From a virus: a stretch of 36,614 nt of DNA. The first letter of the stretch is position 1. Each line of letters opens with the position of its first letter. The notes under the pieces are model-generated. The model worked only from the letters and a program-made list of their open reading frames with translations. It did no database searches and was not told where the DNA came from. The stretch lies in the IMG/VR virus record IMGVR_UViG_3300018026_000029. The stretch is one strand, 5' to 3'. Made by a program: the position numbers and the translations under genes. This document shows, one piece after another, positions 3,254 to 24,449 of the stretch.

Positions 3254-5906
3254 CCCTGTTCCCGTTCCCAAGGAGGCGGTGGTGGGGCAGGTCTACCTCC
3301 TGCACTTCCTGGGGGAGGGCCTTGCCCACGGGGCGCAGGCCCGCACCCGGCACTACCTGGGGTGGTCCGAGGACGCGGAGTCCCACATAGCCCAGCACAT
3401 GCGCGGCACCTCCGGTGCCAGGCTGATGGAGGTAGTGAAGGAGCGCGGCATAACCTTCACCGTGGCAAGGGTCTGGGACAACGTCACGAGGGAGTGGGAG
3501 AGGAAGCTGAAGAACGCGGGCGGCCTGAGCCGCTGGTGCCCCGTCTGCAAGGCAGAGGGCACCATCCCGAAGTCGCGCCAGAGGACGAGGGCCGAGGTGC
3601 CTGCACCGCCCCCTGCACCGCCTACAGGCCCGGACTACGCGGGGCCCGAGGAGAGGGCGGGGGAGGACTTCGGCAAGGCCTCCGCATCTCACAGGCTCCC
3701 CAAGGGCGTGCGGGTCACCGTCAAGAGGGAGCGTCTGTCCGGCGGGAGCGACTGGTACATAGGGCACATCTGGAAGGACTACCAGTACGCGGGCCACTGC
3801 CCCGTCTATTCCGAGCTGCCGTCCAAGGCCCGGGAGGCGGCCATCGACTGGGCATGGCAGATGTTCCCGGAGGAGCACCCTGGCGGGGAAAAGGTAGCCT
3901 ATGACTACAAGCAGATGTTCCGTACCATCCTTTCCGAGCTGGGGGCCCTGGACAGGCTGGCGGCCCGCAAGGCCGACGTGGAGATAAGCGCCTGGGTAAA
4001 CTGGGCGAAGCGCGTCCTCCAGAAGCGCGACAGGATAACCTGGTTCCTCCGCCTCGGGCAGCTCAAGTGGGCGGACTACCTCGCCGATGCCTACCAGTGG
4101 TACAAGAGCCCTGGCTCCAGGGCGGAGGAGGCCAGGAAGTGGAAGGAGTGGATAAAGGCCAAGGCACAGCAGGAGGAGCCCCCTGCTACCCCGGAGGGGG
4201 CAGTCTCGACCCACATGGGGGCTGTCATGGCAAGGCTGGAGCACTACCTCAGCCTCCCCATCCCCGAGATACAGGGCACCGTCTTCCTGCGCCAGCAGCC
4301 AGGGGAGATACTGGACAGGTTCCATAGGCTGGAGAAGGACTGGAGGGACAGGCAGTCCCACCTCCTGAGGCCGCACCCGAGGGACGAGGGCAACGAGGCG
4401 GACGAGGGGGACGAGATAGTCCTGGAGTTCCCTGACGGCTGGGCATGGTGGAGGCTAGGCAGGTCTTACTGCCCCGAGGAGGCCCGTGCCATGGGCCACT
4501 GCGGGAACGAGGCCGCCGGGCCCGACAGGCCGGACGACCGTATCCTGAGCCTGAGGCATAAGGTAATCGTGAACAGGGAGACCTTCTGGGAGCCCCACCT
4601 CACGTTCATCTGGGACGATGACGGGCTGCTCGGCGAGATGAAGGGCAGGGGGAACGAGAAGCCTGCGCCGAGGTACCACCCCTATATCGTTGCCCTGCTC
4701 GAACGCAAGGACCTTGTCTTCGGGATAAAGGGCGGGGGCTACCTGCCGGGGAACAACTTCTCCCTGGAGGACCTGCCCCCGGAGCAGCAGGAGAGGGTGA
4801 AGAAGGCCAACCGCAGCCTGGTCAGCGCCTCGGAGATGTACAGCGAGTCCCGTGGCAGCATGACCGACGAGCTTCTCCAGAGGATTGCGGACAGGACCGT
4901 GCTCAGGAAGGACCAGTGGAGGCCGGAGGAGGAGGCCTTCGTGGTGGATAAGTACGCCAACCCGGAGTGGTTCATATCCACGGAGGGCAGCCCGTGGCTG
5001 GAGGCCCAGATGATGCTGGCCCGTGGGGGGTTCGGCAAGCACCCCAACCACCAGGTCGTGGAGGAGGGGATAAGGGACCTGCTCTCCGTCCTGGACGACA
5101 GGGAGAGGAGGGCGGTGCTGGAGAGGATGCCCCCGATTCCCGGGCCGCCCCTCCTCTCCCGTGCCCCCAGCCCCGATGCCCCCTGGCGCAGCGAGGACCT
5201 GCCCTCCCTGTTCATGGAGGAGAGGAACGACCATGCCCTGTGGTCGTACCTCAGGGGGGCGACACGGATACTCAGCGCCCCCGAGCAGCAGGGGGAGTAC
5301 GAGAAGCTCTGGGGGATACTGGCCGCCGCCTGGGAGGCAGGCATCACCAGGGAGATGCGCCAGGCGGCCCTGGACAGGGTAAGGGGCTTCCTGGGCAACA
5401 ACAGGCGGAACAATGTGCGCACCAACGATGCCTCCAGGGTAGCCTTCCCGGAGGCCAGCGACCCGGACTTCTGGAGCAAGCCCGTCCTGGTGGAGGTAAG
5501 TATCCAGGACGCCGTGCATCTTGCCTCCCCCTTCTCCCATGAGGAGTCAGGGTACTCCGGGGGCGAGGACACGGCCATCTACATCGACGACTACTGGGAG
5601 ACCAGCCACGGGGCCGTCCTGTACGATGCCAGCGCACCCTACAAGAAGCTCACCCTCCCCTCCGACCAGAAGAGGGACCTCGACCTCAAGATGGACAGGG
5701 AGTCCGAGGGCAGGGAGGGCAGGTCGGTCAGGCAATGGCACGAGGACTTCCTCAGGGGCCGCCCCTACGAGTACCTGCGCTGGCTGCGGGAGGAGGTACC
5801 GGCCATCTTCGAGCAGGAGATGACGCCGGAGGCATGGGACGAGGGGAAGGCCAGGGAGGCCCTGATGGTGATGCTCCCCAGCCTCCGCTCCCAGGGGAAG
5901 GGCTAG
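3243..5906 (+). CDS. 887-aa multidomain protein: N-terminal GIY-YIG-like nuclease domain, CxxC ribbon and Pro-rich linker, then copy 1 of the novel WAWW/MGHCGN module, then a ~350-aa tail of unknown function.
   Basis: GIY-YIG-like region: 'QVYLLHF...RHYLGWSED...HIAQH...REWERKLKN'. Zinc ribbon: 'CPVCK'. Linker: 'PAPPPAPPTGP'. Module hallmarks: 'YDYKQMFRT', 'DGWAWWRLGRSYCPEEARAMGHCGN', 'RILSLR', 'EPHLTFIWDDDG', 'LGEMKGRGNEKPAPRYHPYI', 'GGGYLPGNNFSLEDLP'. The ATG overlaps the previous stop by 11 nt. Confidence 0.7.
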   Translation: MGHSPVPVPKEAVVGQVYLLHFLGEGLAHGAQARTRHYLGWSEDAESHIAQHMRGTSGARLMEVVKERGITFTVARVWDNVTREWERKLKNAGGLSRWCPVCKAEGTIPKSRQRTRAEVPAPPPAPPTGPDYAGPEERAGEDFGKASASHRLPKGVRVTVKRERLSGGSDWYIGHIWKDYQYAGHCPVYSELPSKAREAAIDWAWQMFPEEHPGGEKVAYDYKQMFRTILSELGALDRLAARKADVEISAWVNWAKRVLQKRDRITWFLRLGQLKWADYLADAYQWYKSPGSRAEEARKWKEWIKAKAQQEEPPATPEGAVSTHMGAVMARLEHYLSLPIPEIQGTVFLRQQPGEILDRFHRLEKDWRDRQSHLLRPHPRDEGNEADEGDEIVLEFPDGWAWWRLGRSYCPEEARAMGHCGNEAAGPDRPDDRILSLRHKVIVNRETFWEPHLTFIWDDDGLLGEMKGRGNEKPAPRYHPYIVALLERKDLVFGIKGGGYLPGNNFSLEDLPPEQQERVKKANRSLVSASEMYSESRGSMTDELLQRIADRTVLRKDQWRPEEEAFVVDKYANPEWFISTEGSPWLEAQMMLARGGFGKHPNHQVVEEGIRDLLSVLDDRERRAVLERMPPIPGPPLLSRAPSPDAPWRSEDLPSLFMEERNDHALWSYLRGATRILSAPEQQGEYEKLWGILAAAWEAGITREMRQAALDRVRGFLGNNRRNNVRTNDASRVAFPEASDPDFWSKPVLVEVSIQDAVHLASPFSHEESGYSGGEDTAIYIDDYWETSHGAVLYDASAPYKKLTLPSDQKRDLDLKMDRESEGREGRSVRQWHEDFLRGRPYEYLRWLREEVPAIFEQEMTPEAWDEGKAREALMVMLPSLRSQGKG
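3898..4790 (+). repeat. Protein-level tandem module, copy 1 of 4 (YDYMEMF / WAWW / MGHCGN / EPHLTFI family).
   Basis: Shares an ordered set of conserved blocks with copies 2–4. It also shares short conserved DNA words with them, for example 'gactacaagcagatgttc', 'tgggcatggtgg' and 'gccatgggccactgcgggaac'. Confidence 0.6.
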
Positions 5907-8900
5907 ATGGAGAAGCTCTCCTACGACTACATGGAGATGTTCAGGGGCATACTCTCCGACTTCCCCGGCCAGCTAGAGCACCTGAGGAGGGAGGTCAAGT
6001 GGGCCAAGACCCTCCGCAAGCAGGACCGCATCACCTGGTTCCTGCGCTGGCTCAGGATAGCGGTATACGACGGCATAGCCCTTACCCTGCACGGGGACAG
6101 CGACCCGGCCAGGAGGGAGCTGTCCAGCAAGTACGCCCGCCTTATGGCCGCCGAGATGCAGCGGATAGGCTGGTCCGACAGGGACATGCTCTACATCAGC
6201 CTGCACAGCGCAAAGGACAGCATCGTACACTTCCTGGGCATCCCCTCCCCTGCCATCCAGAACCTTGTCTGGGGGAGGCAGACCCCCGCACAGCTACTAG
6301 GCAGCTTCGAGGAGGCGGAGAACGACTGGAAGGGGGCGGACAGCGACAGGGCGCTCGCCCCGCACGAGGACGACCAGGTAGCCCTGAGGTTCCCCAACGG
6401 CTGGGCGTGGTGGCTGCTGGGGAGGGGCTACTGCCCCGAGGAAGCCAAGGCGATGGGGCACTGCGGGAACGTGGCAGGGAGGGACCTGCCGGGGCAGCGC
6501 ATCCTGAGCCTCAGGCGTCCCGTCAAGGGCCCGGGCGGCCGGGAGGCCTGGGAGCCCCACCTTACCTTCATCCTGCATATTGCCCACAAGGCGCTGGGCG
6601 AGATGAAGGGGCGCGGCAACGAGAAGCCTGCCGCCAGGTACCATCCCTACATCGCTGCCCTCCTGGAGAGCCCCGTGGTGGAGGAGATATGGGGCGGGGG
6701 GTACCTGCCCGAGAACAACTTCAGCATGGCGGACCTGCCCAGGGACGTGCAGGAGGGCCTTGTCCAGAAGAAGCCCGCCCTGATGACCTTCAGGATGAGG
6801 CTGGCGAAGGAGGGTGCCCAGGGGCCGAGCGAGGAGCTGGTCAGGGACATCACCTGGAAGCTGAGCATGGGGGCTGACGACTGGTCGCCCAGGCTGCGGG
6901 CGTTCAGGATAGGCACCTGGAAGAGCGCCATAGACTTCGCGGGGCAGTTCGGCACGGAGGAGACAAGGCAGGTAATCCAGCTTGCGCTGGACGGGGAGGG
7001 CATACCGACCTCCTCCGATATGGGGGAGGACGAGTATGTCCTGGAGGCCCTGAGGGCCCTCTCCCCCGACAACCTGAAGAGGGTAGTAGACTACACCCGC
7101 TGGACGGACCCCAAGGCGCTGGAGTGGTGGGCCAAGAACCGGGGCAACCCGGATACCCCCGAGGGCATCGCCCAGATGATAGGGAGGATGGACCTTCCCA
7201 ATATCAGGACGAACCTCTATAGCTGCTGGTACAGGGGGATGAAGAACGGCACCGTCTTCCAGCTCCTCCATGCCTGCTGCAACGAGATAGAGAAGCTAAA
7301 CCCCGTCACCCCGGCAAGCACGGAGCTGGCATGGGGAGACCCGTCCCCCAGGGCCGTCCAGACATATACCCGCAGCCCGGACAGGCTCCTCCTGGCAACG
7401 CCCCTCTGGGAGACCGTGCCCCTGGAGTTCGCCGCAGCCGTGGCCGACGACGAGGAGAAGGACCCCAGGGAGATGCCCTACAGGTACGAGGAATGGTCGG
7501 GGCTAGAGCTGAAGGCTCCCCCGGACGGCTGGGGGGACTTCAGCAAGAGGACGGTGAACGAGGAGGCCAGGTTCTTCTTCCATACCGGGGACGGTATACC
7601 GGAGCAGCTTGCCAGCCTGGATATCGCCAAGGTAGCCTATGACTACATGGAGATGTTCCGTGGCTTCCTGGCAGACTTCCCGAGGTTCCAGCCCACGGTG
7701 ACCAACACCATAAGCTGGTGCAAGCGGGTCCTCAGGAAGCGCGACCGCATCACCTGGTGGCTGAGGCAGATGCGCCTCTTCTGGTACAACCTGGTAGCCG
7801 ACAAGGCCTCGGCCTGGCGCTATGCCCCTGCGACAAACTGGCCCGCCACGGAGGTTCCGGCCGACAACACGGCCATGATAGCGCTGGCAGACAAGTACCA
7901 GGCGCTCTTCGACAGGGAGGTGCGCTCCCTGGGTCCCCTAGGGCTCGCTGACCGGTCGAACTACCTGGACCTGGGGATGTTCGCCAACTCCAACCAGAGC
8001 ACGATGGAGCACCTGCTCAGCCTGCCCGTCCCAGAGATACAGAACCTCGTGTGGGAGAGGCAGACCAAGCAGGAGCTTTTCAGGACCCTCCTTAACTACG
8101 AGACGAAGTGGAAGGAGGAGAGCAAGGGGGTCCTCCGCCCCCGCCCAGGGGACAGGCCTGTCATTACCTTCGGGGACGGATGGGCATGGTGGCTCCTCGA
8201 CCGTGGGTACTGCGAGGAGGAGGCCCGTGCCATGGGCCACTGCGGGAACGTCAACGGGCAGAACCGCCCCTACGAGCGCATCCTCAGCCTGCGGAAGTCG
8301 GTGCGCAGGGGGGGCACGGAGTATTACGAGCCGCACCTGACGTTCATCCTCGACACCCGCGACAGCTCCCTGGGGGAGATGAAGGGCAAGGGTAACAACA
8401 AGCCCGCCCCCCAGTACCACCCCTATATCCTCAGGCTCCTGGAGAGCGACATAGTGAGCAAGGTGAAGGGCGGGGGCTACCTGCCGGAGCATAACTTCAG
8501 GCTGGGGGACCTCAGCGAGGAGCAGCGGGAGGAGCTTGCCCAGAGGAAGCCCTCCATGGCCGCCTTCTATATCCGCCTCAAGAGGGAGGGCCCCAGCCCG
8601 GCCCTGATAGCCGACATCGGCAGCGCCTTGCAGGTAGGGGGCTGGGACCCCGACCTCCAGGGGTACGTCATCAGGCAGTGGGAGAACATGTCCTCCCTGG
8701 CCGAGGACATAGGGAACGACACGGCGAAGTGGATAGCCAAGGTGGTGGGGGGCGGGGAGTTCAACCGACATGATAGCCCAGACTTCGAGTACGGCGACCG
8801 CTCGGAGGCCATGAAGATGGCACTGGGTGCCTGCTCCGACAAGACCCTTGACCTTGTGGTCAGGTGCCTTGCCTACAAGTACCCCACCAACCTGGTGGAG

Positions 8901-11375
8901 TGGCTGGAGCACAACAACACCGACTACAGCGGGCAGGCCACCGGGTTTATGGAGAGGGGGTTCGGCGACTCCCAGGCCCGCAAGTGGCTCTCCAAGCTCA
9001 ACCTGAAGATAGACGGGGTCCTGGGCGATGACGATGACATCATAGACTTTATCGAGTTCGCAAGCCTGGACGACGAGGAGAGCACCCTCCTTAACGCCTG
9101 GACAGACGCCACGCAGTCCGGGACCGAGATAGACATGAATAGGGACTTCGAGCACGCTGCCAACGACCTCCTGGGCACGGAGTTCCCCTGGGGTACCATG
9201 CTGAGGAGGAAGGGAAAGTACTTCTGGGACGACCCCATCTATGAGTTCATGCCCCTGGCCAAGGCTATCGAGGTAGCAGACAGCGGCGAGGACAGCGCCA
9301 GCAGCTACATGGAGGCCAACGGCAGGGACGACAGCGAGGAGTTCAGGCTGAAGGTTGACGAGCCCTACTACGGATACAACGGCTGGGACGAGTCTGCCGC
9401 CGACGAGCGGATAAGCGAGGGGTTCAGCTTCAAGGAGGAGCCCGAGCCCGAGCCTCCCAAGAAGGCCAGGAGGCCCAGGAAGCCCAGGGCCCCCAAGCCA
9501 AAGAAAGTGATGTCGGCGCTCGGCGACATCGCAGGGAAGTCGGCGCTCGGCGGCATGAAGCTGGCCTACGACTACATGGAGATGTTCCGTGGGCTGCTCC
9601 AGGACTTCCCGGGCCGCAAGGAGACGATAGACGGGGAGATAGCCTGGTGCAAGCGGGTCCTCAAGAAGAGGGACCGCATCACCTGGTGGCTGAGATGGTT
9701 CAGGCTCTTCGAGTACCATGGCATACGCCACAACCCCATGTACTACTGGAGCAAGTACTCCACCACCGAGGTAGAGGAGCAGCTCCCGCAGAACATCACC
9801 CCCGCTATCCGAGAGAGGCTGGCCGCCCTTTCCAGGAAGTACGACAAGGCCTACACGGACGAGATGCACAGGCTGGGCTGGACCGACTTCCGGGGGGGGC
9901 ACTACCCCGACTCCACCAGGCATACGGTAGAGCACTACCTGTCCCTGCCCGTCCCGGAGATACAGGGCCTCGTCTGGGAGAGGCAGCAGCCCTACGAGCT
10001 GTTCATGCTCCTGATGGGCCTGGAGGAGAAGTGGAAGGAGAGGACCAAGGGGGTGGTCGCCCCCCACGAGGGGGACAAGCCGGTCCTGACCTTCGGCGGC
10101 GGGTGGGCATGGTGGCTGCTGGACAGAGGATACTGCGAGGACGAGGCAAGGGCCATGGGGCACTGCGGCAATGTCGCCGGGCAGTACGATGACGACCAGC
10201 GCATCCTCAGCCTGCGCCAGTCGGTGAGGAGGGGCAGCGAGGAGTTCTACGAGCCGCACCTCACCTTCATCCTGCATACCGGGGACAACTCCCTGGGGGA
10301 GATGAAGGGGAAGGGCAATGCCAAGCCCACGGCAAGGTACCACCCCTACATCGTCAAGCTCCTGGAGAGCGGCCTTGTCGATAGGGTAAGGGGCGGAGGC
10401 TACCTTCCCGAGCACAACTTCAGCATGACGGACCTCCCGCAGGCGGAGCAGGACAGGCTGGTGGCCCTGAAGCCCTCCCTTATGTCCTTCGCCTACCGCC
10501 TGGGCAAGGAGGGGATTACCAAGGGGCTGCTCTCCGACCTGTCCAGGGTGCTGTCCCCGATGGAGGAGGGAAAGCCCTATCCCGTCAAGGACTGGTACAT
10601 GCCCAAGCGCCGTGGCTTTCTCATCAACTCCTACACGCTCAAGGAGTTCACAGAGGAGTTCGGGGACGAGGAAAGCCAGGATGCGGCCGATGTCCTGGAG
10701 GGCCGTACCGCGATATCCACCGGCATCGGGGGAGGGGAGGGGTACTGGGCGGGGTGGGGGGGCACAGGGGGAGTGGACCCCCTTGAGGACACCCTGTCGG
10801 CCATAGGCATGACGACCCTTATGATGGCGGAGAAGTACTACAGGGGGCTCTCCAAGGAGCTGCTGCCGGACACCCACCTTGTCTGCACCTATGACCAGGC
10901 CCGGCGCACGTCCACGGGGCCGGTGGCCGGAATCCTCAGCTTCATATCCCAGAACAGGCTCCTGGCGGAGTCCAACAGCATCACCGAGGCATGGAAGAGG
11001 GGCAGGAACGCCGGGATAAAGGCCAGCATGCTCAAGGAGCTTGACAGTGCCCTGGACTCCATCCTGGACCGCCGCCTGGAGGACGGCACCATCTTCTACC
11101 GCCTCGACCCCGCAAGGTGGAACTCCGACATCGAGCACATCCTGCCCCTGGAGGAGGCCGTGGCGATAGCCGACCAGGGGCAGACCTTCGAGGATTTCTT
11201 CGAGGGGTGGGACCAGAGCGTCTGGACCCCCGTCATAGAGTTCGAGGTCCCCCCGCAGGGGTGGCCGGGGTGGGACGCCCAGGCGGCAGAGCTTGCCCTG
11301 AGGGAGCATTACTCCTCCGGGCAGGAGGAAGAAGGCAAGAAGCCTAAGCCTAGGGGGAGGAGGAAGGCCAGGTAA
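5907..11375 (+). CDS. 1822-aa giant protein carrying copies 2, 3 and 4 of the WAWW/MGHCGN module. Each copy has a putative papain/transglutaminase-like Cys-His-Asp core. Linker regions of unknown function separate the copies.
   Basis: Three reiterations of the blocks 'YDYMEMFRG..DFPG', 'KRDRITWWLRW', 'GWAWWLL.RGYC.EEA.AMGHCGNV', 'RILSLR', 'EPHLTFIL', 'LGEMKGKGN.KP', 'YHPYI', 'GGGYLPE.NF'. The ATG follows the upstream TAG directly, with GGAAGGG 4 nt upstream. The TAA stop overlaps the next ATG (TAATG). Confidence 0.75.
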   Translation: MEKLSYDYMEMFRGILSDFPGQLEHLRREVKWAKTLRKQDRITWFLRWLRIAVYDGIALTLHGDSDPARRELSSKYARLMAAEMQRIGWSDRDMLYISLHSAKDSIVHFLGIPSPAIQNLVWGRQTPAQLLGSFEEAENDWKGADSDRALAPHEDDQVALRFPNGWAWWLLGRGYCPEEAKAMGHCGNVAGRDLPGQRILSLRRPVKGPGGREAWEPHLTFILHIAHKALGEMKGRGNEKPAARYHPYIAALLESPVVEEIWGGGYLPENNFSMADLPRDVQEGLVQKKPALMTFRMRLAKEGAQGPSEELVRDITWKLSMGADDWSPRLRAFRIGTWKSAIDFAGQFGTEETRQVIQLALDGEGIPTSSDMGEDEYVLEALRALSPDNLKRVVDYTRWTDPKALEWWAKNRGNPDTPEGIAQMIGRMDLPNIRTNLYSCWYRGMKNGTVFQLLHACCNEIEKLNPVTPASTELAWGDPSPRAVQTYTRSPDRLLLATPLWETVPLEFAAAVADDEEKDPREMPYRYEEWSGLELKAPPDGWGDFSKRTVNEEARFFFHTGDGIPEQLASLDIAKVAYDYMEMFRGFLADFPRFQPTVTNTISWCKRVLRKRDRITWWLRQMRLFWYNLVADKASAWRYAPATNWPATEVPADNTAMIALADKYQALFDREVRSLGPLGLADRSNYLDLGMFANSNQSTMEHLLSLPVPEIQNLVWERQTKQELFRTLLNYETKWKEESKGVLRPRPGDRPVITFGDGWAWWLLDRGYCEEEARAMGHCGNVNGQNRPYERILSLRKSVRRGGTEYYEPHLTFILDTRDSSLGEMKGKGNNKPAPQYHPYILRLLESDIVSKVKGGGYLPEHNFRLGDLSEEQREELAQRKPSMAAFYIRLKREGPSPALIADIGSALQVGGWDPDLQGYVIRQWENMSSLAEDIGNDTAKWIAKVVGGGEFNRHDSPDFEYGDRSEAMKMALGACSDKTLDLVVRCLAYKYPTNLVEWLEHNNTDYSGQATGFMERGFGDSQARKWLSKLNLKIDGVLGDDDDIIDFIEFASLDDEESTLLNAWTDATQSGTEIDMNRDFEHAANDLLGTEFPWGTMLRRKGKYFWDDPIYEFMPLAKAIEVADSGEDSASSYMEANGRDDSEEFRLKVDEPYYGYNGWDESAADERISEGFSFKEEPEPEPPKKARRPRKPRAPKPKKVMSALGDIAGKSALGGMKLAYDYMEMFRGLLQDFPGRKETIDGEIAWCKRVLKKRDRITWWLRWFRLFEYHGIRHNPMYYWSKYSTTEVEEQLPQNITPAIRERLAALSRKYDKAYTDEMHRLGWTDFRGGHYPDSTRHTVEHYLSLPVPEIQGLVWERQQPYELFMLLMGLEEKWKERTKGVVAPHEGDKPVLTFGGGWAWWLLDRGYCEDEARAMGHCGNVAGQYDDDQRILSLRQSVRRGSEEFYEPHLTFILHTGDNSLGEMKGKGNAKPTARYHPYIVKLLESGLVDRVRGGGYLPEHNFSMTDLPQAEQDRLVALKPSLMSFAYRLGKEGITKGLLSDLSRVLSPMEEGKPYPVKDWYMPKRRGFLINSYTLKEFTEEFGDEESQDAADVLEGRTAISTGIGGGEGYWAGWGGTGGVDPLEDTLSAIGMTTLMMAEKYYRGLSKELLPDTHLVCTYDQARRTSTGPVAGILSFISQNRLLAESNSITEAWKRGRNAGIKASMLKELDSALDSILDRRLEDGTIFYRLDPARWNSDIEHILPLEEAVAIADQGQTFEDFFEGWDQSVWTPVIEFEVPPQGWPGWDAQAAELALREHYSSGQEEEGKKPKPRGRRKAR
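5919..6740 (+). repeat. Protein-level tandem module, copy 2 of 4.
   Basis: 'LSYDYMEMFRGILSDFPG ... NGWAWWLLGRGYCPEEAKAMGHCGNVAGRD ... RILSLRRPV ... EPHLTFILHIAHKALGEMKGRGNEKPAARYHPYI ... GGGYLPENNFSMADLP'. Confidence 0.6.
7633..8520 (+). repeat. Protein-level tandem module, copy 3 of 4.
   Basis: 'VAYDYMEMFRGFLADFP ... DGWAWWLLDRGYCEEEARAMGHCGNVNGQ ... RILSLRKSV ... EPHLTFILDTRDSSLGEMKGKGNNKPAPQYHPYI ... GGGYLPEHNFRLGDLS'. Confidence 0.6.
9562..10450 (+). repeat. Protein-level tandem module, copy 4 of 4.
   Basis: 'LAYDYMEMFRGLLQDFPG ... GGWAWWLLDRGYCEDEARAMGHCGNVAGQY ... RILSLRQSV ... EPHLTFILHTGDNSLGEMKGKGNAKPTARYHPYI ... GGGYLPEHNFSMTDLP'. Confidence 0.6.
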
Positions 11376-14300
11376 TGGCACAGGACCTAACAGCCATCAG
11401 CACGCCCGGCACGACCACCCAGGGCCCCGCGTTCAAGGCATGGTTCCGGAACTCCGTGGTGAGGAACCCGGACGGCAGCCCGAGGCCTGTCTACCATGGA
11501 AGCACGCACAGCTTCGAGGCCTTCAGCCTGAAGCCCGGCAACCCCGAGAACTGGTACGGCAAGGCGCTCTACTTCACCGACAGCCCCGAGGACGTGGGGA
11601 GGAACTACGCCACCCCCGACTCGCCGGACCTCAGGGCCCGCATCGACAAGCGCACCGAGCAGCTCATGGACAGGCTGGTGGACGAGCTGGAGCAGGAGCT
11701 TGGCGAGGCGCTGAACTGGAACGACCCCCGCAAGGATAGGCTCTTCCAGGACGCCAAGTCCCAGGCCACCAAGGAGCTTATGGGCCCTGGTGCCATATCC
11801 TACAAGCTGTACCTGCGCATCGAGCGGCCGGTAGTTATCAGGCAGGGCGGCGGCACCTACTTCGAGATAGACTACAACGAGAGGACCGGGAGGGAGACCG
11901 GCTCGGGCATGCGCCTGTACAGGGCGGTGATGAAGGCGGCAGGGCAGCTCAACCTCCCGAACAGCGACGAGATATGGCGGCAGTCGGTATCGGCAGACGA
12001 GGGGATGACGGAGGGCTTTACCGCCCAGCAGTTCGACGAGAACCTCCGCCACTCCGATGCCATGATGGAGGCACGGGACTGGGACGCCACCAACGAGGGC
12101 GAGTTCCTCTCCCTTGTCTACCGCCTGGCCGGATACGACGGCATCATCATGGAGGACGCCGGGGCCACCTTCCACAACATGGGCATCCCCCCCGGCACCA
12201 GGCACTATATCATCTGGAACCCCCGCCAGGCCAAGTCCGCCATTGGCAACACGGGCACGTGGAGCACCCGCACCCCCAGGCTGACGGCAGGCTGGGAGGA
12301 GGACGAGGGGGACTACGGGGTAGAGGACTACCCCCAGTGCCTCGGGGACTACGAGTTCAGGACGACATGCGTGTCCGAGGGCACCGGGGAGCACATCCAG
12401 GAGATGCTGGACAATGCCAAGGACTGCGGCTACAGCGAGGTAAAGAGGCACTGCGAGGGGCTGAGGCCGTGGGAGAAGGAGAACGGCTACGCCCCGGACG
12501 GCAGCCGTAAGGGGCTTACCCTGCGGCACGACTGGGCCGTGAGGTACGGCAGGGGCACCTACAGGAGGATGCCCTGCTACTTTGTCGTGTGGAGCGGCAT
12601 CGAGCATGTCTGGACGAGGAAGGGTGCCGGGGGGCAGGAAGGCTGGGAGGACTGGGCAGGGCGGACGTCAAGCAAGGGTGCTGGGAAGTCTGCCGGGAAG
12701 CCAGGCAAGGCAGGCCTCCTGTACCACGGCACCACGAAGGCCAACCTCCCGTCCATCATGTCCGAGGGTCTCAAGCCCACGGTGGGGTGCTATGCCGAGC
12801 TATGGCATGGCAGGGACCATAACGACACGAGCAAGTCCAACAACCTGGCCCCCGTGGTGTTTGCCGCCCCCAGGGAGCACCTCGACGACTGCCTGCTGGC
12901 CATCTTCGCTGCCCTCAGCAAGGACTTCCCCAGGACCTCCACGGAGCAGTTCTTCGACAATGCCGTCCTCCTGGAGCTTCCCGCCGACCAGTTCACAAGG
13001 AACAGGTGGAAGCGCCCGCCGAGAAATATGAAGCATGTGGAGTCGAGGGACTACTACAGCACCAGCCCTGTCAGGCCTATCCGGGCGATAACAGGGGAGG
13101 AGCTGCGGGGGTTCGCAGGGTATGCCTACCAGAGCGCCCGCCAGGAGTGGTTCGGGGCATACGACCCGGAGAGCCCTGGGCGCAGGCTCGCGGCGGGGAA
13201 GGAATGGCCCCCCTGGATTGGGGTGGACCTGGACGGCACGCTCGCCGAGGAGCAGAGCCCGTTCGACCCGCTGACCATCGGCAGGCCAGTCCCGGAGATG
13301 GTGAGGAAGGTCAGGCAGGCATTGGAGGACGGCGTGGAGGTACGGGTCTTCACCGCCCGGCTTGCAGACAAGGGGCTCAGGGACAGGATTAAGCAGGCCA
13401 TCAGGGACTATACCAGGGAGCACGTCGGCAGGGAGCTGGACAGCACCAACGAGAAGGACCCTGGCCTCAGGGAGATATGGGACGACAAGGCCAGGAGGGT
13501 GAGGAAGGACGAGGGCACCTTCGCCCTGCGGGGCACCGAGCGCCAGCCCTCCCGGGCCGACAGGTACCTGCGCGAGATGTGGAGCCCCGGCGACGGCGCT
13601 TGGTTCGAGTACCACTGCTGGGAAGACCCCAAGTCCTGCGATGCCAACCTGTGGTACCATTCGCACCAGAGGGTCACCGTGCTCGGCAAGGCGGACGCGG
13701 ACGGCTGGCACAAGGGCTGGGATGGCAGCATGATGAAGGACCGTGCGGAGGCGGGTGCCCCGAGGGCGTATACGGTGAGATTCCAGGACGGGTACGAACG
13801 CACCGCCGGGGAAGACGAGCTGATGACCAGCCGGAGGGGATTCTACCGCCCCGACCCGCCAAGGCCGCCCAAGGCGTTCGCCCTGCGGGGGAGCATTATC
13901 GTCGAGGAGCCCCTCTACCACGTCACCTTCAGGAAGAACCTGAGGAGAATCCTCAGGGAGGGGCTCCGTGGCGACCAGGAGCCTAACTGGCCCTTCGACT
14001 CGTCCCCCGGCAACGTGTACCTGATGACCAGGGACGGGCTGGACTTCTGGATGGACAGGTACGAGGACCTGCTCCGCGAGATGGGGAGCAGGTCAAAGCT
14101 GGTGGTTCTGGAGGTATCCCCCAAGGGGCTTATGTTCCAGGAGGATATACAGGGCACCGAGGACTCGGGGACAGAGGCATACCGTACCGGCTTCGTCCCT
14201 CCGGGGAACATACATGCCAACTGGCGGAGGACTGCCTCGCTTGGCAAGGCGGCCTTCAGGAGGCGTGCCCCCCTCTACCATGTGACCTTCTCGAAGAGCG

Positions 14301-14596
14301 TCCCGGCCATCCTGCGGGATGGCCTGGTGCCGAAGACATACCCCAAGCTCCCCCCCAGCCAGTGGGAGAAAGGGGTATACCTTACCAGCAAGGAGGGCAT
14401 ACCGTTCTGGGAGAACATCCTGCGGGATGACATGAAGTGGGGGGGGTTCCACGACCAGCTCTCCGTCCTGGAGGTCTCGCCTGAGGGGCTGGAGCTGGAG
14501 TACGACCGGCAGGGGACAGGGGACTCTGGCGCGAAGGCGTACATTACCCCAAGGGTCCCGCCAGAGAATATCTCCGTCCTGCGGGGGCCTGTCTAG
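11375..14596 (+). CDS. 1073-aa protein: N-terminal H-Y-E-class (PARP/diphtheria-toxin-like) ADP-ribosyltransferase domain, one HGT-type Tpt1/KptA-like domain, a HAD-superfamily phosphatase domain, and two tandem HVT-type Tpt1/KptA C-lobe-like domains.
   Basis: ART domain: 'VYHGSTHSFEAF' (H41), 'WYGKALYFTDS' (Y61/Y66), 'TYFEIDYNE' (E164). The H–Y–E spacing matches PARP and DT catalytic cores. Tpt1-like blocks 'LLYHGTTKANLPSIMSEGLKP...VVF..VLLELP', 'LYHVTFRKNLRRILREGL...NVYLMT...KLVVLEVSPKGL...VPPGNI' and 'LYHVTFSKSVPAILRDGL...GVYLTS...LSVLEVSPEGL...VPPENI' align to KptA 'LYHGT...GL...HYVHLS...PVILTVKA...VWLT'. HAD motif I: 'WIGVDLDGTLAEE'. HAD motif II: 'VRVFTAR'. Confidence 0.75.
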   Translation: MAQDLTAISTPGTTTQGPAFKAWFRNSVVRNPDGSPRPVYHGSTHSFEAFSLKPGNPENWYGKALYFTDSPEDVGRNYATPDSPDLRARIDKRTEQLMDRLVDELEQELGEALNWNDPRKDRLFQDAKSQATKELMGPGAISYKLYLRIERPVVIRQGGGTYFEIDYNERTGRETGSGMRLYRAVMKAAGQLNLPNSDEIWRQSVSADEGMTEGFTAQQFDENLRHSDAMMEARDWDATNEGEFLSLVYRLAGYDGIIMEDAGATFHNMGIPPGTRHYIIWNPRQAKSAIGNTGTWSTRTPRLTAGWEEDEGDYGVEDYPQCLGDYEFRTTCVSEGTGEHIQEMLDNAKDCGYSEVKRHCEGLRPWEKENGYAPDGSRKGLTLRHDWAVRYGRGTYRRMPCYFVVWSGIEHVWTRKGAGGQEGWEDWAGRTSSKGAGKSAGKPGKAGLLYHGTTKANLPSIMSEGLKPTVGCYAELWHGRDHNDTSKSNNLAPVVFAAPREHLDDCLLAIFAALSKDFPRTSTEQFFDNAVLLELPADQFTRNRWKRPPRNMKHVESRDYYSTSPVRPIRAITGEELRGFAGYAYQSARQEWFGAYDPESPGRRLAAGKEWPPWIGVDLDGTLAEEQSPFDPLTIGRPVPEMVRKVRQALEDGVEVRVFTARLADKGLRDRIKQAIRDYTREHVGRELDSTNEKDPGLREIWDDKARRVRKDEGTFALRGTERQPSRADRYLREMWSPGDGAWFEYHCWEDPKSCDANLWYHSHQRVTVLGKADADGWHKGWDGSMMKDRAEAGAPRAYTVRFQDGYERTAGEDELMTSRRGFYRPDPPRPPKAFALRGSIIVEEPLYHVTFRKNLRRILREGLRGDQEPNWPFDSSPGNVYLMTRDGLDFWMDRYEDLLREMGSRSKLVVLEVSPKGLMFQEDIQGTEDSGTEAYRTGFVPPGNIHANWRRTASLGKAAFRRRAPLYHVTFSKSVPAILRDGLVPKTYPKLPPSQWEKGVYLTSKEGIPFWENILRDDMKWGGFHDQLSVLEVSPEGLELEYDRQGTGDSGAKAYITPRVPPENISVLRGPV

Positions 14597-14618
14597 CCGT
14601 TCCCTCTAATAGAGACAC

Positions 14619-17600
14619 ATGGCGATAGCGGACAAGTTCGACCTGGGCTTCGTGGGGAGGCTGATGCGCTCCCGCAACGGCACCGTTGTCGGCACGCTCG
14701 GCGACCTGCTGAAGAGCCCCAGGGCGAGGGACCTCTACAAGGAGGCCCTGGGCGTGCCCGTCATGGTCCTGGACAGGCCCGTGCAGGGGGGCAAGTTCGT
14801 GGACAGCCCCGACCCCAACCTCAGGTTCTTCGGGGCCTGCGGCTCCCTCCGTGGCAAGGCATGCATATTCGTCAACCCCCGCTGGGGGGAGGAGGAGACC
14901 ATAAGGACCCTCCTGGAGGAGGGGGCGCACGCCCTGCGCAAGCTGAAGGGCAGGCCAGCGACGAAGCAGGACATCACGGCCCTTACCTCGGAGAACATCG
15001 GGGAGATGCACGACAGCCTGCCGGAGGAGGTGTCCGCCAAGCAGATGGCGGAGTATGTCCTGAAGACAGCCGCCCAGCTTCCCTCCGTGGCCTTCCGCCA
15101 GGTGTGGCATATCGGCAGCATGGACCCCGAGGACAAGGGGAAGGATAGCCTGGAGGGGGCGGGGCTCAGCATATCCACCCACCCCGAGGAATGGCAGCAG
15201 ATAGCCGAGCTGGGCGAGGGCCCGGTCTGGGAGCTTACGAGGAAGGGCAACAGGTTCCTTGACTTCCACCGCCTCACCAAGGCGCAGCTCGGTGCCATGG
15301 CCGACTGGGGGGCGCAGCAGGGCCTCATAGAGAGGCGGCCCGCCTGGCAGGTCAGGTGGTGGGACAGCGAGGACAACGGGTTCAGGTACGCGGAGACCGA
15401 GACCGAGGAGGAGGCGAAGGAGGAGGCCGGGGCGGTCGGGGGCAAGGTAAGGGCGCTCAGCAGCATAGCCTACCCGACTGACAGGCTGAGGAAGGCCACC
15501 AGGAACCCCCGTGCCAACTCCGTGGTGGCCATGGACCTGCTGGCGACGGTCTATGCCGACAAGGCCCTGGGCTGGGACGGCGTATGGTGGCAGGATACCC
15601 TGGACGTGCCTGGCCTCAGCGCCCCGAGGGGCGTTATCCTCCCCTCCAGGCTGGCAGGGTGGCAGAGGCGGCAGGTAGGCATGGAGGGGATAGAGGACTA
15701 CGGTGCCCCCGGCAGGAGGGTATCCTCGGACAGGAGGTTCATCTGGCAGGGCAGGCATGGCAAGGCCCCGCAGCCCGGCGTCCCCTATTACCATGTCGCC
15801 CCGGCCAGCTACCAGGAGGGCCAGGATATCTACTCCTACGATGCCTACCAGGACGAGTTCGGCGAGGAGCCCGAGTGGAAGTGGGAGGAGGGCCAGATTG
15901 GGGATACCGACAAGGTCTCCCTGCATGACAGCCTGGAGGAGGCAGAGGGCTTCCGGGAGGAGTGGGTCCCCGGTGGCAGGGTCATAGAGGTCGTGTTCCC
16001 CTCCCCGCTGGGGCAGCTAGGCCTGTCCGGAGGGGTGAACGGCGAGGGGTACCCGTTCGTCCGCCATCGTATACCAGGGGGGTTCGTCAGGAAGGTCAGC
16101 AGTGGCCGGAAAACACTGGAGGAGCTTGCCCTGGAGTTCCGTGAGAGGCAGGAGGACTGGTTCGAGTGGCAGGATGACAAGGCGTGCTTCCGGGAACAGT
16201 GCCTTGGCATAGCCAGGGGCCTGGCCAAGTTCCTGACGGAGAACGGCATCCCTGCCGAGCCTTGGCACAGTTACTATTATGACGATGACGGGAAGCCCCA
16301 TAACCACTGGTGGGTCATAGCCGGGGGCAGGGTGGTGGATGTAACGGCCGACCAGTTCCATCCCGAGGACCCCGACAGCTACCGGGTGGTCATAACAAGC
16401 CTGGATGACCCTCACTACAGGCAGAGGAAGGCCAGGCAGGCCGGGACAGAGTCCTCCCCCCAGTCCGTTCCCGCCATGCAGGGGTGGGGCTATGACGAGC
16501 CGTTCCCTGACAGGCACTCGGACTTCTTCGAGCTGGTGGAGAACCCCCACACGGACAGGGGCAGGGAGACCAGGGTGCTGGAGACCGGGGCACCGCCGCC
16601 CGAGGGCGGCGAGGGCAAGCCTGCCAGGGGAGAGCCTGGCCAGGAGGGCACGCTGGTCAGGCCGATGGCGTCCTTCAGGAGCGCCCTCCTGCGCAAGAAG
16701 GCATACAGTATCCTGGCGGTGTTCTGGGTCAAGCTCCAGGGGCGCATCCTGCTGTTCCCCAACAGGTTCCTCAACCATGACCAGATTCTACAGGAGACAG
16801 GCATCCCTGCGGGCGGCCCGGAGTACGACAGGATGCTGCGGGGCAGGGTGTTCATAGACCGGGAGAGGCGGCGGGTGAGGTTCACCCGGCACGGTGGGGG
16901 CTATACCCCCAACGATGTGGTGGAGGAGATTGTCAGCCGCTACCACCTCCAGGACTGGGAGATGGAGGACGAGGGCGAGGCCATGGGCAGGTACGGCTCT
17001 GTCCAGGGCGGGCCCGTGGTCGAGAGGCTCGGCCGTGAGGACATCCCCGAGGCCCTGGAGGTCATCGCCCAGTGCTTCCCCCAGTACGCGGACATCGCCG
17101 ACGTGGTCTCCAGGGACGTCCGGGGGGACTTCAGCCTCTCCTATGGGATGAGGCTGGAGGGCAGGATTATAGGCTGCTACCTCCTGGGCCGCGTGCAGCT
17201 ACCCGAGGAGTACCCCGGCCGCCCCGAGGCACAGGCATACGCAGGTAAGAGGGGCGTGCGGGGGGTGTGCCTGTGCCTGCTGCCCCAGTACCGTGGCAAG
17301 GGGTGGGGGGCAAGGCTTCGGGCCGTCCCGCTCTCCCTGGGGGCGGACTATGTCTGGGGCGAGCATTACAGCAGCCTGGACAACCTCGGCAAGTGGACGA
17401 GCTTCGGACGCAGGCTGCTGTTCGACACGAAGGATGCCAAGGGGCAGCCCTACCATGTTACCGTCATGGACCTGAGGGGGGGGCCGCCGAAGGCCGCCTC
17501 CTCCAGGGACCCCTACCTCTACCATGTAGCGCAGCCGGGCACCCTCGGGAACATAGCGAGGGACGGGCTCCAGGGCGGCATACTGGGCCCGAAGGTGTTC

Positions 17601-20600
17601 CTTACCGAGAGGGCCGGGGTCGGCTTCTGGCGGGGGTACGATGCGTCCGCCCCCGTCCTTCGCATGCGGCGGGACCTGCTGGAGGACCTGGAGCCGGACG
17701 ACTACGGGACACAGGACTCCGGGTCCCCCTGCTACAGCGCCCAGCCCGTGCCCCCCGCCCGCCTGGAGTTCCGGGTGGACACCCCCCAGGGCGAGGCCTG
17801 GAGGCCCGTAAGGTACGCGCTCGCCAAGGCCGCCTCCCAGGGCATACCCTCCTTCAGGGGCCTCGTGCGGGAGCTTGGGGGCATGAAGTACCTCCTGTCC
17901 GAGGTCGATATCGACGAGTTCGACCTGGAGGGGTCGGGGAAGAAGCCCGAGGAGTACATCAGGGGCAAGTTCAACGAGGTGAGGTCGTTCTTCGCCGGGC
18001 TCAGGTACCCCATACCTGTCTACCGGGCAATAAGCGGGGACCGCAGCGAGCTGAGGACAAAGGGCTTCGGCACCTCGTGGTCGATGAGCGAGGGAGGGAT
18101 GGGGGAGCAGGGGGCATACCCCTACGAGGGGAACCCGTCCAGCTACCAGGTCTACTCCTCCCACGTGTCGCCCAGGGACATAAACTGGACCAGCACCCTC
18201 CTGCTGGCCATGGGGAGATGGTGGGACAGGGAGAAGGAGATAGTGGTGCGCAACGGGGCACGGCTCAGGGTCGGCGACGATGACGGCAGGATGTTCGAGG
18301 TGACGGCGTCCTTCGGGAAGACCGCCCTCAATGTCCCCAAGCTGGTCCAGGACTTCGGCGCGAAGCTCGTGGAGAGGTACAAGGCCGACTTCCCGGACGA
18401 CACAAGGGAAATCGACCCGGCGGCCCTAATCAACTCCCTTGTCCCGCTCGACCCTACCGGCAACCATGAGTACGTGTCATGGATAGTGGGCAACTATGCC
18501 CGTGGGGAGCTTGGCGAGTACGATGATATCGAGGCCACCGTCATCCCGCTCATCGAGCGCTACCATGCCCTGAAGAAGACCAGGAACCTACAGCCCCAGG
18601 ACACGAACATCCAGAGGCTACGCGGGAAGGCCGCCCTGGAGGCACTGCTGGCAAGGTACGCCGAGGTAGAGGCGGAGTCGAGGCGGCAGAGGGCCGTCAG
18701 CAGGGAGCAGGCGTTCTTCAGGAAGGGGGAGGCCGAGCTGGTGCATGACGACCCGGAGATGAAGGTCGTCATCCCCGAGACCTGCGAGGCGGCCAAGTTC
18801 TTCGGCGTCAACACGAGGTGGTGTACGTCGGCCGAGAGCAACAACGCCTTCCAGCAGTACCACGAGGAGGGGCCGCTCTACATCGTCCTGCTCAAGAGGG
18901 AGAACAAGAGGTTCCAGTTCCACTTCCAGACGGCGCAGTTCACGGACGAGGCGGACAGGCCGCTCGACATCGAGGAGTGGCTGGTGGAGCACCCCATGGT
19001 GGCCAGGCTGCTCGGGCCCCTGGCCGAGAAGGCCGATTCCGAGTGCGACGAGTGCGCTGGCCATGGGAGCAGCAGGTGCGGGGAGTGCGACGGCGAGGGG
19101 GCCGTGGAGTGCGTGGAGTGCGGCGGCAGCGGGCACGAGCGCTGCAACGACTGCCAGGGGAGGGGAAGGGTCCCCTGCGGCACATGCAACGGCGTAGGCA
19201 TGGCGGGCGGGGGGGAGTGCCCGGCGTGCCACGGCGACCAGTACGAGCAGTGCGGCTCCTGCCATGGGACGGGCAACAAGAAGTGCGAGGAGTGCGACGG
19301 GCGAGGGTCCCATGCATGCGGGAGCTGCGAGAACGGGAGCATAACGTGCGACAAGTGCGGGGGCACGGGCAAGAACCCCGAGATGAACCAGTTCCTCGAA
19401 GGGTGCCAGAGGGCCCTCGCAGGGCCGCTGTCCGTCCCTGCCCTCCGCAACCTCAGGAAGAAGAAGTGGCCAGCGCTGAAGAAGAGGGTCAAGGACTGGA
19501 TAGAGCCCAGGAGGACCCCCGTACACGTCGGCCCCAGGGGCATGGCGTTCCTGCAATGGCTGGAGGGGGTGAAGAGGAGGCTCAAGGGCAAGAGGGGCAG
19601 CAAGACGGCAGCGGAGGGGAGGTGCCAGCACTGCGGGGGCAGCCGCATAGGCATGGCCCTGCACTCTCCCAGCGCTGACACCTACTGGTGCATGGACTGC
19701 AACAGGAACACCGACGTCAGGCGGGAGGGGGTAAGCTGGAGCCTGCGGGACGCTGTATCGAGGTGGGGCGGCAAGACGGCGGCCGGCGAGTGGTGGAGGA
19801 GGTGGAGGAAGACCGAGGTTCTCCCCAAGGGCACGGTCCTCTACCATGGGACGGCACAGGAGTTCCCAGGCATGGACCTTAGCCTGCCTGCCTGGTTCAG
19901 CACCTCCAGGTCGGTGGCGGAGCACTTCCAGTCATGGCACGGGGAGGACGAGGGGAAGCACCGCCTCCTGATGTTCAGGGCGACCAGGCCCATCCGCCTG
20001 CCCCGCATAGATGGCAGGGAGGACCTGGAGAGGATGGAGGACATGTTCGGCCTCCAGACCTCCTACGGGGCCGAGGACATAGTGGACAGCCTCTCCCAGA
20101 GCGGGCTGCCCGGCTGGGTTATCCCCCATAACTACCCGGACGGGGACGACATCCTGCTGGCGGAGACGGACAGCATCGAGTTCACGGGGCAGGAGCCCGA
20201 GGCCGCGGACGAGGAGAGCGGGGAGACGGACGAGTTCGGCCACAGCCTGGAGCTGCCCGGCAAGTGGACGAGGAACGGGGACGGCAACTGGGTCTACCAT
20301 ATGACCCCCGAGGAGATAGCCGAGCGGGAGCGCATCGTGGGGAAGAAGGGTGCAGAGGCTAGTGAGGACCCCCCTGTCACCAAGGAGCTGCTCACCACCC
20401 GCAACCCCAAGGCGATGAGGCCCTACCGCCCCAGCCTGGTCACCACCGAGGGCAACCCCAAGATGGAGAAGGGCCTGTCCAGGGGATACCTCACGGGCGT
20501 CATGCACCTCATGCCGGCCGACAAGAGCGGGTACGGGAACGTCTGCCCCTTCAGCTCGGCGGAGTGCCGCCATCACTGCCTGAACACGGCCGGCAACTGG

Positions 20601-24294: not shown

Positions 24295-24449
24295 GGCGTT
24301 CTCCTTGAGGTGATAAGCTCCACCGAGTCGTTGGCGACATCGAAGGCGATGGCCACCACCGGCTCGTAGTCCCCTGTGTCCGGGTCGAATGCCCTTACCT
24401 CCAGGCCAGGGTAGTACGACAGCATCCTGACTATGTCCGATGCCGTCAT
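24276..24449 (-). CDS. Unlisted 57-aa ORF ('MTASDIVRMLSYYPGLEVRAFDPDTGDYEPVVAIAFDVANDSVELITSRRTPCSEKP') that fills the gap between the CCA gene and the membrane-protein gene.
   Basis: I translated it by hand from the minus strand. Its ATG overlaps the CCA-gene TGA (ATGA). GGAGG lies 4 nt upstream. Composition is balanced. It is too short for the ORF track. Confidence 0.35.
   Translation of the reverse strand: MTASDIVRMLSYYPGLEVRAFDPDTGDYEPVVAIAFDVANDSVELITSRRTPCSEKP

Follow-up and report, generated by a model that had tools for sequence, protein, structure and literature searches.

Polyvalent proteins are single polypeptides of phages and conjugative elements that combine two to fifteen functionally unrelated domains, with the ADP-ribosyltransferase (ART) domain ART-PolyVal among the hubs of the class (PMC5512222). 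ART-PolyVal belongs to the Tox-ART-HYD2 clade, and its active site is formed by a His in strand 1, a Tyr in strand 2 and an Asp in strand 5 (PMC5512222). They are regarded as the weapons that a phage or plasmid uses first on entry, and almost none of them has been biochemically tested. The enzyme Tpt1 (KptA) is composed of an N-terminal winged-helix RNA lobe and a C-terminal lobe that binds nicotinamide adenine dinucleotide (NAD+) (PMC8464070). Each residue of its Arg-His-Arg-Arg tetrad is essential, and three of the four belong to the N-lobe. In the Runella enzyme, the 2'-OH of the adenosine ribose of NAD+ receives hydrogen bonds from His99-x-Thr101, and this pair is essential (PMC8464070). 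The ADP moiety, bound by the C-lobe of Tpt1 alone, supplies most of the binding energy. Three reports describe Tpt1 enzymes that attach ADP-ribose to 5'-phosphate ends and clear terminal 2'/3' phosphates (PMC6182162, PMC6573784, PMC12678800). Here, we analyzed a gene of the virus record IMGVR_UViG_3300018026_000029 from IMG/VR (36,614 nucleotides; the window, below, is this whole stretch), whose 1,073-residue product brings an ART-PolyVal domain, Tpt1-like NAD+ lobes and a HAD phosphatase together in one chain.

With a probability of about 0.6, the gene encodes a polyvalent effector of a large tailed (soil) phage, built as a string of modules that are largely independent and connected by linkers. 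This reading follows from the architecture, the context and the shuffling of modules, which match those of polyvalent proteins. At least five recognizable modules (ART-PolyVal, an M-type domain, HAD and two C-type units, C1 and C2) and two unassigned ones are combined in a phage context, as in the definition of the class. As in the described polyvalent proteins (PMC5512222), there are several unrelated effector domains, the ART-PolyVal hallmark, which is sometimes multicopy, and shuffled modules, and the neighbouring open reading frames (ORFs) also carry SprT-like zincin, GNAT-like and YunG modules. The polyvalent class and the N-terminal ART are already known, and the C-type family is without a curated Pfam model. 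The C-type and M-type modules and the HAD are additions to the repertoire of PMC5512222, where Tpt1/KptA or phosphatase domains are nowhere mentioned; in the polyvalent-protein surveys that were searched, neither a Tpt1-C-lobe-only family nor a HAD is described as a component. An earlier note, made from the sequence alone, had listed an ART, Tpt1-C-lobe-like domains lacking the RNA lobe and a HAD; this inventory largely holds, but the note had not considered a polyvalent effector architecture.

The ORF list contains the 1,073-codon plus-strand frame at 11375-14596 as previously given, and the motif positions of the earlier note were verified (HGS with H41, YFTD at 66, YFEIDY at 162 including E164, HGT at 451, DLDGT at 618 and HVT at 849 and 969). 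The stop of the upstream 1,822-codon ORF overlaps the ATG of the target (TAATG), which is preceded by a Shine-Dalgarno-like run, GGAGGAGG. The database protein P0001 differs over 1,073 residues solely by C472R, codon 472 (12788-12790) encoding Cys in the window (KPTVGCYAELW) and Arg in P0001. The gene for P0001 occurs on 9 metagenome contigs of several samples and is always flanked by the same 1,822-aa and 2,144-aa neighbours, a recurrence that indicates a genuine, conserved gene. P0001 was retrieved by a word-indexed homologue search with the whole protein as the query, whereas fragments aa 830-1073 and aa 430-610 retrieved nothing, P0001 included; since these queries missed a near-identical protein, their negatives for C1-C2 and M are uninformative.

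The N-terminal module passes the gathering threshold of ART-PolyVal (PF18760) in a Pfam scan of the target, with 56.5 bits against a cutoff of 31.2 (E 6.9e-15) and a match in two stretches, which bears out the ART domain proposed earlier for this end of the protein. The proposal had been of a PARP/diphtheria toxin (DT)-like H-Y-E type, with E164 as the third catalytic residue at an H-to-E spacing of about 123 residues, as in DT and PARP1. In the alignment with 11 close homologues, H41, Y66 and D255 are identical in all of them and E164 in nine. D255 belongs to a GYDG motif, which is also present in compact ART-PolyVal copies, and the invariant H, Y and GYDG Asp are common to the module and to the ART-PolyVal/Tox-ART-HYD2 clade. 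The C-terminal tail P-x-Q-x-K-S-A-x-G-N-x-G is likewise as in the compact copies. These copies are approximately 140 to 175 aa long, whereas the long form of the target has about 290 aa and carries two inserts, at about aa 75-140 and aa 156-245, with E164 inside the second. In distant polyvalent proteins, the pieces of the query at ~14-85 and ~245-307 are matched as neighbours, with a gap of 42 to 120 residues in most copies versus 160 to 215 in the query.

Both forms are found in gp321 (1,362 aa) of the 309-kb Tunturiibacter phage Tunturi_5, the closest cultured relative of the N-terminal module, which has a compact copy at about aa 731-905 and a long copy at aa 1061-1345 that is 40% identical to the target. 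The conserved GGTYFE(164)I motif of the second insert is common to the target and gp321, where the GGTYFEI segment is present in the long copy only and absent from the compact copy. Because this segment is missing from compact copies, including the one inside gp321, E164 falls outside the family triad. Judged from the sequence, the proposed family-wide triad is H41-Y66-D255, of the H-Y-D clade; E164 may nevertheless matter for the long subfamily. The H-Y-E assignment was thus attractive but wrong: the family is H-Y-D (PMC5512222) with D255 invariant, E164 belongs to a subfamily-specific insert, the DT- and PARP1-like spacing is a coincidence produced by the two inserts, and the active-site acid is corrected from E164 to D255. 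The H-Y-E class itself was rejected, as a core strand-5 Glu is lacking and the insert harboring E164 does not occur in compact copies. The Pfam PARP match covers just 23 residues, in the M domain, at 16.7 bits against a cutoff of 26.7. No relationship was detected between the N-terminal module and the C-type family by hhalign (probability 0.8%).

The exchange of modules is seen among the relatives of the protein. P0002 has aa 16-418 in common with the target at 76% identity, and its remaining local matches are weak. In P0004, the Cys-containing module that follows the ART and the HAD are kept, and M is exchanged for a segment that reads by eye as GNAT-like. In Tunturi_5, gp321 (L005:2821-6909) has the head-tail connector gene on one side and the genes for the minor tail, terminator and sheath on the other. 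Four giant proteins bearing C-type units were tested, and all four contain ART-PolyVal above threshold together with GNAT, NUDIX, cREC, C39 peptidase, SET or YunG-like domains; in one protein, P0027, C-type domains stand alongside cREC and NUDIX. Further products of the window include a collagen-like tail fibre, a tRNA nucleotidyltransferase and a protein that weakly resembles a major head protein, so the virus is a tailed phage; GP88 in the next gene likewise belongs to the phage context. By eye, gp321 also shows a zincin HELCHH (HExxH), a 2H-like pair HITV/HVTV and a GNAT-like region next to its two ART-PolyVal copies; its deposited name, "MutT/NUDIX hydrolase," looks misleading, and it looks like a typical polyvalent protein in a structural block.

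The two C-terminal HVT units, C1 and C2, lie about 6 residues apart and are 46.5% identical over 101 aa (E 1e-27), which shows the tandem already noticed in the earlier note to be a genuine duplication. A profile was built from these two copies and a third one in the next gene, which has Ala at T12 (C2 numbering), and was used in an exhaustive search of 1.84 billion cluster representatives (clusters at 50% identity). The profile was matched by 507 proteins at E<=1e-3 and by 58 at E<=1e-10. Among the best 148 matches, the target and P0005 excluded, 80 proteins have up to 250 aa, 44 have 250 to 1,000 aa and 24 exceed 1,000 aa; tandem pairs occur in six proteins among the best matches, the target counted. 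The members occur both as stand-alone proteins of 130 to 215 aa and as modules of giant phage polyvalent proteins. In the family alignment, H10, T12, G24-L25, G49, F52-W53, D85, G88 and D91 (C2 numbering) are invariant or nearly so, and every family-invariant residue is retained in C1 and in C2. No Pfam threshold was reached by any of ten representatives or of 41 aligned members, and the recurrent sub-threshold Pfam matches of family members all belong to the ART clan (DUF7002 in 9, Tpt1 in 5, DarT in 2, HYE1 in 1 and PARP in 1).

The nearest solved relative of the C-type unit is Tpt1. Against PDB, the C-type profile matches Tpt1 at E 3e-4 over positions 4-34, the first beta-alpha unit; hhalign relates the family to residues 98-127 of E. 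coli KptA with a probability of 91%; and the best solved match of the C2 fold model is Tpt1. H451-G-T453 of M, H849-V-T851 and H969-V-T971 align with the LYHGT motif of Tpt1. On its fold model, the C-type unit is an NAD lobe with the ART fold, as in the C-terminal lobe of Tpt1, and the identification of C1 and C2 as KptA-C-lobe-like NAD-binding domains is supported at the level of fold and motif. The block-for-block alignment with KptA proposed earlier is statistically detectable in its first block, LYH(G/V)T...GL, but the later blocks correspond at the fold level only, and only in the HVT units.

None of these domains is a Tpt1. Nothing Tpt1-like was found upstream of M, C1 or C2 that could represent the RNA lobe, and PF01885, NF002013 and NF002014 match only at about profile positions 96-124 of 177 to 183, within the C-lobe, so the missing N-lobe with its R-H pair is confirmed as first noticed. 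For the whole protein, the curated Tpt1 cutoffs are unmet (PF01885, 22.1 bits versus 26; NF002013, 31.7 bits versus a range of 231 to 239 in NCBIfam), and no member of the C-type alignment matches PF01885 better than E 0.022. Where KptA has its C-lobe Arg, R125, the alignment places Tyr989 of C2, and this column varies within the family. As the RNA lobe and the tetrad are absent, the domains cannot carry out the two-step 2'-phosphate transfer known for Tpt1. In contrast to Tpt1/KptA (PF01885; structures 9ld3, 8tfi, 7kw8 and 6e3a), the C-type units have their own FW and D..G(T/S)xD signature. They are also distinct from DarT and DUF7002, neither Pfam threshold being reached by any C-type member; DarT (PF14487) appears below threshold in 2 of 41 family members (best E 0.034), and no DarG-like Macro partner was found among the window proteins.

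The family also includes stand-alone proteins of about 190 to 215 aa (P0025, P0028-P0030, P0033 and P0035) that place the C-type domain at around residues 90-200. In front of the domain lies an N-terminal extension of about 85 aa, which includes a helix-turn-helix-like segment, SLRT(L/V)Q..(F/L)GVSEGEA.F..R. In size and layout these proteins resemble Tpt1 (N-lobe plus C-lobe), but they lack a Pfam match to it and any obvious R-H pair, and they may be an analogous two-lobe enzyme. Their assignment as canonical Tpt1 was rejected given the lack of a Pfam match and a tblastn search of cultured phages with one stand-alone member of about 200 aa, which found nothing.

The M-type domain is more divergent. 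Its first 25 to 60 residues match Tpt1 best (PDB 9ld3, E 8e-4), and it matches NF002013 with E 1e-7, yet with 31.7 bits against a cutoff of 231. Against the C-type family, hhalign gives a probability of 95%, over 26 columns for M by itself and over 50 columns for a profile of three sequences. Two full-length relatives of M were found, in aa 1-140 of P0010 and aa 1899-2060 of P0031, and the three sequences have in common HGT, GLxPxVG, an hVFxA strand and VExxD(Y/V)(Y/F)S...VxP; no close relatives were found in the IMG/VR scans. A local jackhmmer search from M drifted into the C-type family via the common N-terminal motif and was discarded as evidence. Most likely, M is a putative, divergent ART-like NAD lobe. 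The three Tpt1-like domains of the earlier note are better described as a pair belonging to an uncurated ART family and a single divergent, putative ART-like domain.

The module between M and C1 was called a HAD on its motif I, and this call stands: motifs II to IV are all present, and D618, D620, T622, T660, K694, D703 and D704 are invariant in alignments with four phage homologues. The module matches phrog_1238 (E 3.6e-7) and phrog_415 (E 2.6e-4) in PHROG, and the nearest curated model is TIGR01662 HAD-IIIA (E 2.8e-4; 21 bits versus a cutoff of 44.6). A HAD profile aligned with PDB 1xpj (126 aa) across motifs I to IV at E 0.046, and the single sequence gave no match in PDB. Homologues with 34 to 44% identity were found in cultured phages by tblastn, as stand-alone proteins of 107 to 122 aa in BcepSauron ("HAD hydrolase"), phiRSL1 and Rhizobium phages and within a longer Vibrio phage protein; they adjoin genes for DNA polymerase I, helicase, endonuclease or thymidylate synthase. 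No close relatives were found in the IMG/VR scans. Like the small capless HADs (TIGR01662, 1xpj and the phosphatase domain of T4 Pnkp), the module has about 110 aa, no cap, motifs I to IV and DxDGT; unlike them, it scores under all curated cutoffs, and unlike Pnkp it has no kinase domain. The TIGR01662 subfamily includes the PNK 3'-phosphatases. The HAD and its DxDGT motif I thus hold, whereas the Pnkp 3'-phosphatase type proposed with them is weakly linked (PF25109 HAD_PNKP, 13.3 bits versus 27.6, E 0.095). A Pnkp-type end-healing enzyme was rejected for want of a P-loop 5'-kinase domain, the motif [AG]xxxxGK[ST] occurring nowhere in the target protein, which also has no kinase family match.

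Taken as a polyvalent effector, the protein would probably, by analogy, be part of the virion and enter the host together with the DNA at an early stage of infection, and its modules would act on host targets largely independently. The ART-PolyVal (aa 14-307) would be an NAD+-using mono-ADP-ribosyltransferase acting on host macromolecules through H41, Y66 and D255. The segments at aa 842-953 and 960-1073, and probably that at aa 446-600, would be minimal NAD+-lobe domains of the ART fold with the Tpt1/KptA C-lobe as nearest solved relative, in which His-x-Thr is predicted to hold the adenosine-ribose of NAD+ as in Tpt1. A different NAD+ chemistry would probably take place at the invariant Asp...Gly-Thr/Ser-x-Asp loop, which precedes the penultimate strand (E96-99) in the model; ADP-ribosyl transfer and NAD+ cleavage are candidates. 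The region at aa 606-715 would be a capless HAD phosphomonoesterase with the D618 nucleophile intact.

More tentatively, the C-type unit, YxYHVT...GL...G(R/K)VFLxE..G.xFW...VVLR...D..G(T/S)xD...AYY..IP, may define a large uncurated family of lobe-less Tpt1-like ARTs with at least 507 clusters at 50% identity, possibly with an undescribed NAD+-dependent reaction. In this proposal, which we consider less probable than its contrary, the Asp-rich loop would replace the Tpt1 tetrad and the ART Glu, and the reaction would be used by injected phage effectors, for example, to ADP-ribosylate a phosphate of a nucleic acid or nucleotide or to destroy an NAD-derived immune signal; the HAD might then process a phosphorylated product. 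The confident model and the signature (H-x-T, FW and D..GTxD) make the chemistry of the C-type units directly testable.

Several points weigh against the polyvalent-effector reading. The window contains neither MuF nor a portal nor any other marker of packaging, and delivery in the virion is proposed purely by analogy, with the place of gp321 among structural genes as indirect support. The Glu of VLEV is variable in the C-type family and there is no counterpart of the canonical catalytic ART Glu, so catalysis is not assured. The resemblance of the putative ART-like M domain to Tpt1 and the C-type units is confined to its first 30 to 60 residues. The catalytic activities, targets, virion packaging and mutual independence of the modules are inferred, in contrast to the domain identities, the fold of C2, the conserved motifs, the phage context and the exchange of modules, which are observed. 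Finally, the HAD and the Tpt1-like modules could be functionally coupled, the co-occurrence with cREC and NUDIX in P0027 hinting at ADP-ribose (ADPr)-phosphate metabolism.

Such a coupling is at the center of the pathway favored by the earlier note, in which all modules cooperate in one NAD+-dependent modification or healing of nucleic-acid ends. The Tpt1-like modules would attach ADP-ribose to 5'-, 2'- or 3'-phosphates, and the task of the HAD would be to clear 3'-phosphates or the phosphate group of ADPr-1''-P. True Tpt1 is reported to cap 5'-phosphates and to clear terminal 2'/3' phosphates (PMC6182162, PMC6573784, PMC12678800), and Tpt1 is the best solved match of C2; the HAD is HAD-IIIA-like with weak PNK matches (phrog_415, E 2.6e-4; PF25109, E 0.095), C-type domains accompany cREC, a cyclic-phosphate processing domain, and NUDIX in P0027, and a CCA-adding enzyme is encoded nearby. 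However, the RNA lobe is absent together with the three of four tetrad residues that engage the RNA phosphate, the counterpart of KptA R125 is Tyr989 of C2 in a variable column of the family, and neither the protein nor the window offers a kinase, ligase, 2H or Macro partner. Moreover, P0004 keeps the HAD without M, P0002 has only the N-terminal and Cys modules at high identity, and the stand-alone HAD homologues beside DNA polymerase, helicase and thymidylate synthase fit nucleotide metabolism at least equally. With relatives exchanging modules independently and the gene lying in a run of large multidomain ORFs, the context does not support a single pathway, and we consider it unlikely.

A non-catalytic role of the Tpt1-like lobes in binding NAD or ADPr is a serious, if improbable, alternative, because they have no canonical catalytic Glu or tetrad. 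The M- and C-type domains would then be NAD+/ADP-ribose binders that serve as sponges, as sensors of NAD-derived immune signals or as adaptors docking the protein on ADP-ribosylated targets. The adenosine-ribose motif H-x-T is kept while the canonical Glu and the Tpt1 tetrad are absent, tandem copies would multiply the binding capacity, and the C-lobe of Tpt1 alone binds the ADP moiety, the main source of binding energy. It is far less probable that the repeated ART-like units are decaying duplicates in a protein that is mainly a structural or scaffolding component of the virion. Such a protein would suit the very large flanking ORFs with internal repeats and a block that is mostly without family assignment, but all family-invariant residues are kept in C1 and C2 at just 46% mutual identity, a near-identical protein (C472R) recurs on 9 contigs from different samples, and the catalytic residues of ART-PolyVal and HAD are intact. 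A defence-system reading was also discarded, with no PADLOC match for the target or its four large neighbours.

The polyvalent-effector reading adds a new ingredient to the class, namely NAD+ lobes most similar to Tpt1, stripped of the RNA lobe, beside a HAD phosphatase; three of these lobes are in the target and one more is in the next gene. The recurrence of the large uncurated C-type family with ART-PolyVal, NUDIX and cREC situates it in the arms race over NAD+ and ADP-ribose between phages and their hosts. The coordinates of all modules are collected in Table 1.

Table 1. Modules of the 1,073-aa protein and related features of the window
Feature	Position	Strand	Basis
Block of five large ORFs, co-directional and tightly packed (647, 887, 1822, 1073, 2144 aa)	1310..21053	+	ORF list
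Whole ORF, polyvalent-type protein, 1073 aa	11375..14596	+	ORF list; database twin P0001
ART-PolyVal domain, long form, aa 14-307; proposed triad H41/Y66/D255	11414..12295	+	Pfam PF18760 and homologue alignment
Cys-containing module, aa 308-418 (C322, C332, C351, C360, C401)	12296..12628	+	Kept as a unit in P0002 and P0004
Gly/Lys/Ala/Ser-rich linker, aa 419-445	12629..12709	+	Sequence reading
M-type HGT domain (putative), aa 446-600; H451-G-T453, GLxPxVG, hVFxA strand, VE(556)xxD(559)YYS	12710..13174	+	
Capless HAD phosphatase module, aa 606-715; motif I D618-x-D620-G-T622, II T660, III K694, IV D703-D704	13190..13519	+	Phage homologue alignment
Module aa 725-840	13547..13894	+	55% identity (aa 739-830) to LR756511 segment
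C-type copy 1 (C1), aa 842-953; H849-V-T851	13898..14233	+	46.5% identity to C2; profile 91.9 bits
C-type copy 2 (C2), aa 960-1073; H969, T971, G983-L984, G1008, F1011-W1012, D1044, G1047, D1050	14252..14593	+	
Third C-type copy, aa 960-1055 of the 2144-aa ORF (14619..21053)	17496..17783	+	blastp E 1e-8 to C2; profile E 6.5e-16

Two modules remain unassigned. The Cys-containing module has no Pfam or NCBIfam match, and in P0002 and P0004 it stands beside other modules than in the target. The module at aa 725-840 has a weak DUF7141 match (E 0.01) and no family assignment; its residues 739-830 (13589-13864) have 55% identity with part of LR756511.1, an uncultured huge phage of 595 kb, and represent another mobile module common to very large phages.

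The target is the fourth ORF of the five-gene block, in which stops and starts overlap or abut, and recognizable effector-type domains are found in three of the five ORFs. The 647-aa ORF shows matches to a SprT-like zincin, YunG and an acetyltransferase, and the 887-aa and 1,822-aa ORFs have no family match. The latter (5907-11375, +) contains three internal repeats of about 600 aa, each opening with (S/A)YDYMEMFRG (aa 6, 578 and 1221) and containing GWAWWLL(G/D)RGYC.(E/D)EA(K/R)AMGHCGN (GHCGN at aa 184, 777 and 1418), without a match in Pfam, PHROG or PADLOC. P0004 opens with the same kind of repeat, which is therefore another shuffled module. Downstream, the 2,144-aa ORF (14619-21053, +) encodes a second giant polyvalent-type protein with eight CxxCxGxG DnaJ-like zinc-finger units (aa 1476-1584) and a C-terminal GP88 domain (PF17338, E 1e-29). 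It also shows a further LYHGT segment at aa 1742 and a GNAT-like stretch at about aa 830-900.

Elsewhere in the window, the ORF at 24446-25894 (-) encodes the tRNA nucleotidyltransferase, of the CCA-adding/poly(A) polymerase type (PolyA_pol, E 3e-32; phrog_2244, E 2.6e-55), and a separate small NTP_transf_2 nucleotidyltransferase is encoded at 154-900 (+). No tRNA genes were found in the window by ARAGORN. A 590-aa ORF at 34769-36541 (-) shows significant matches to domains of the eukaryotic major vault protein (MVP_shoulder, E 5.6e-23; Vault_3, E 1.5e-9), which are unusual in a phage.

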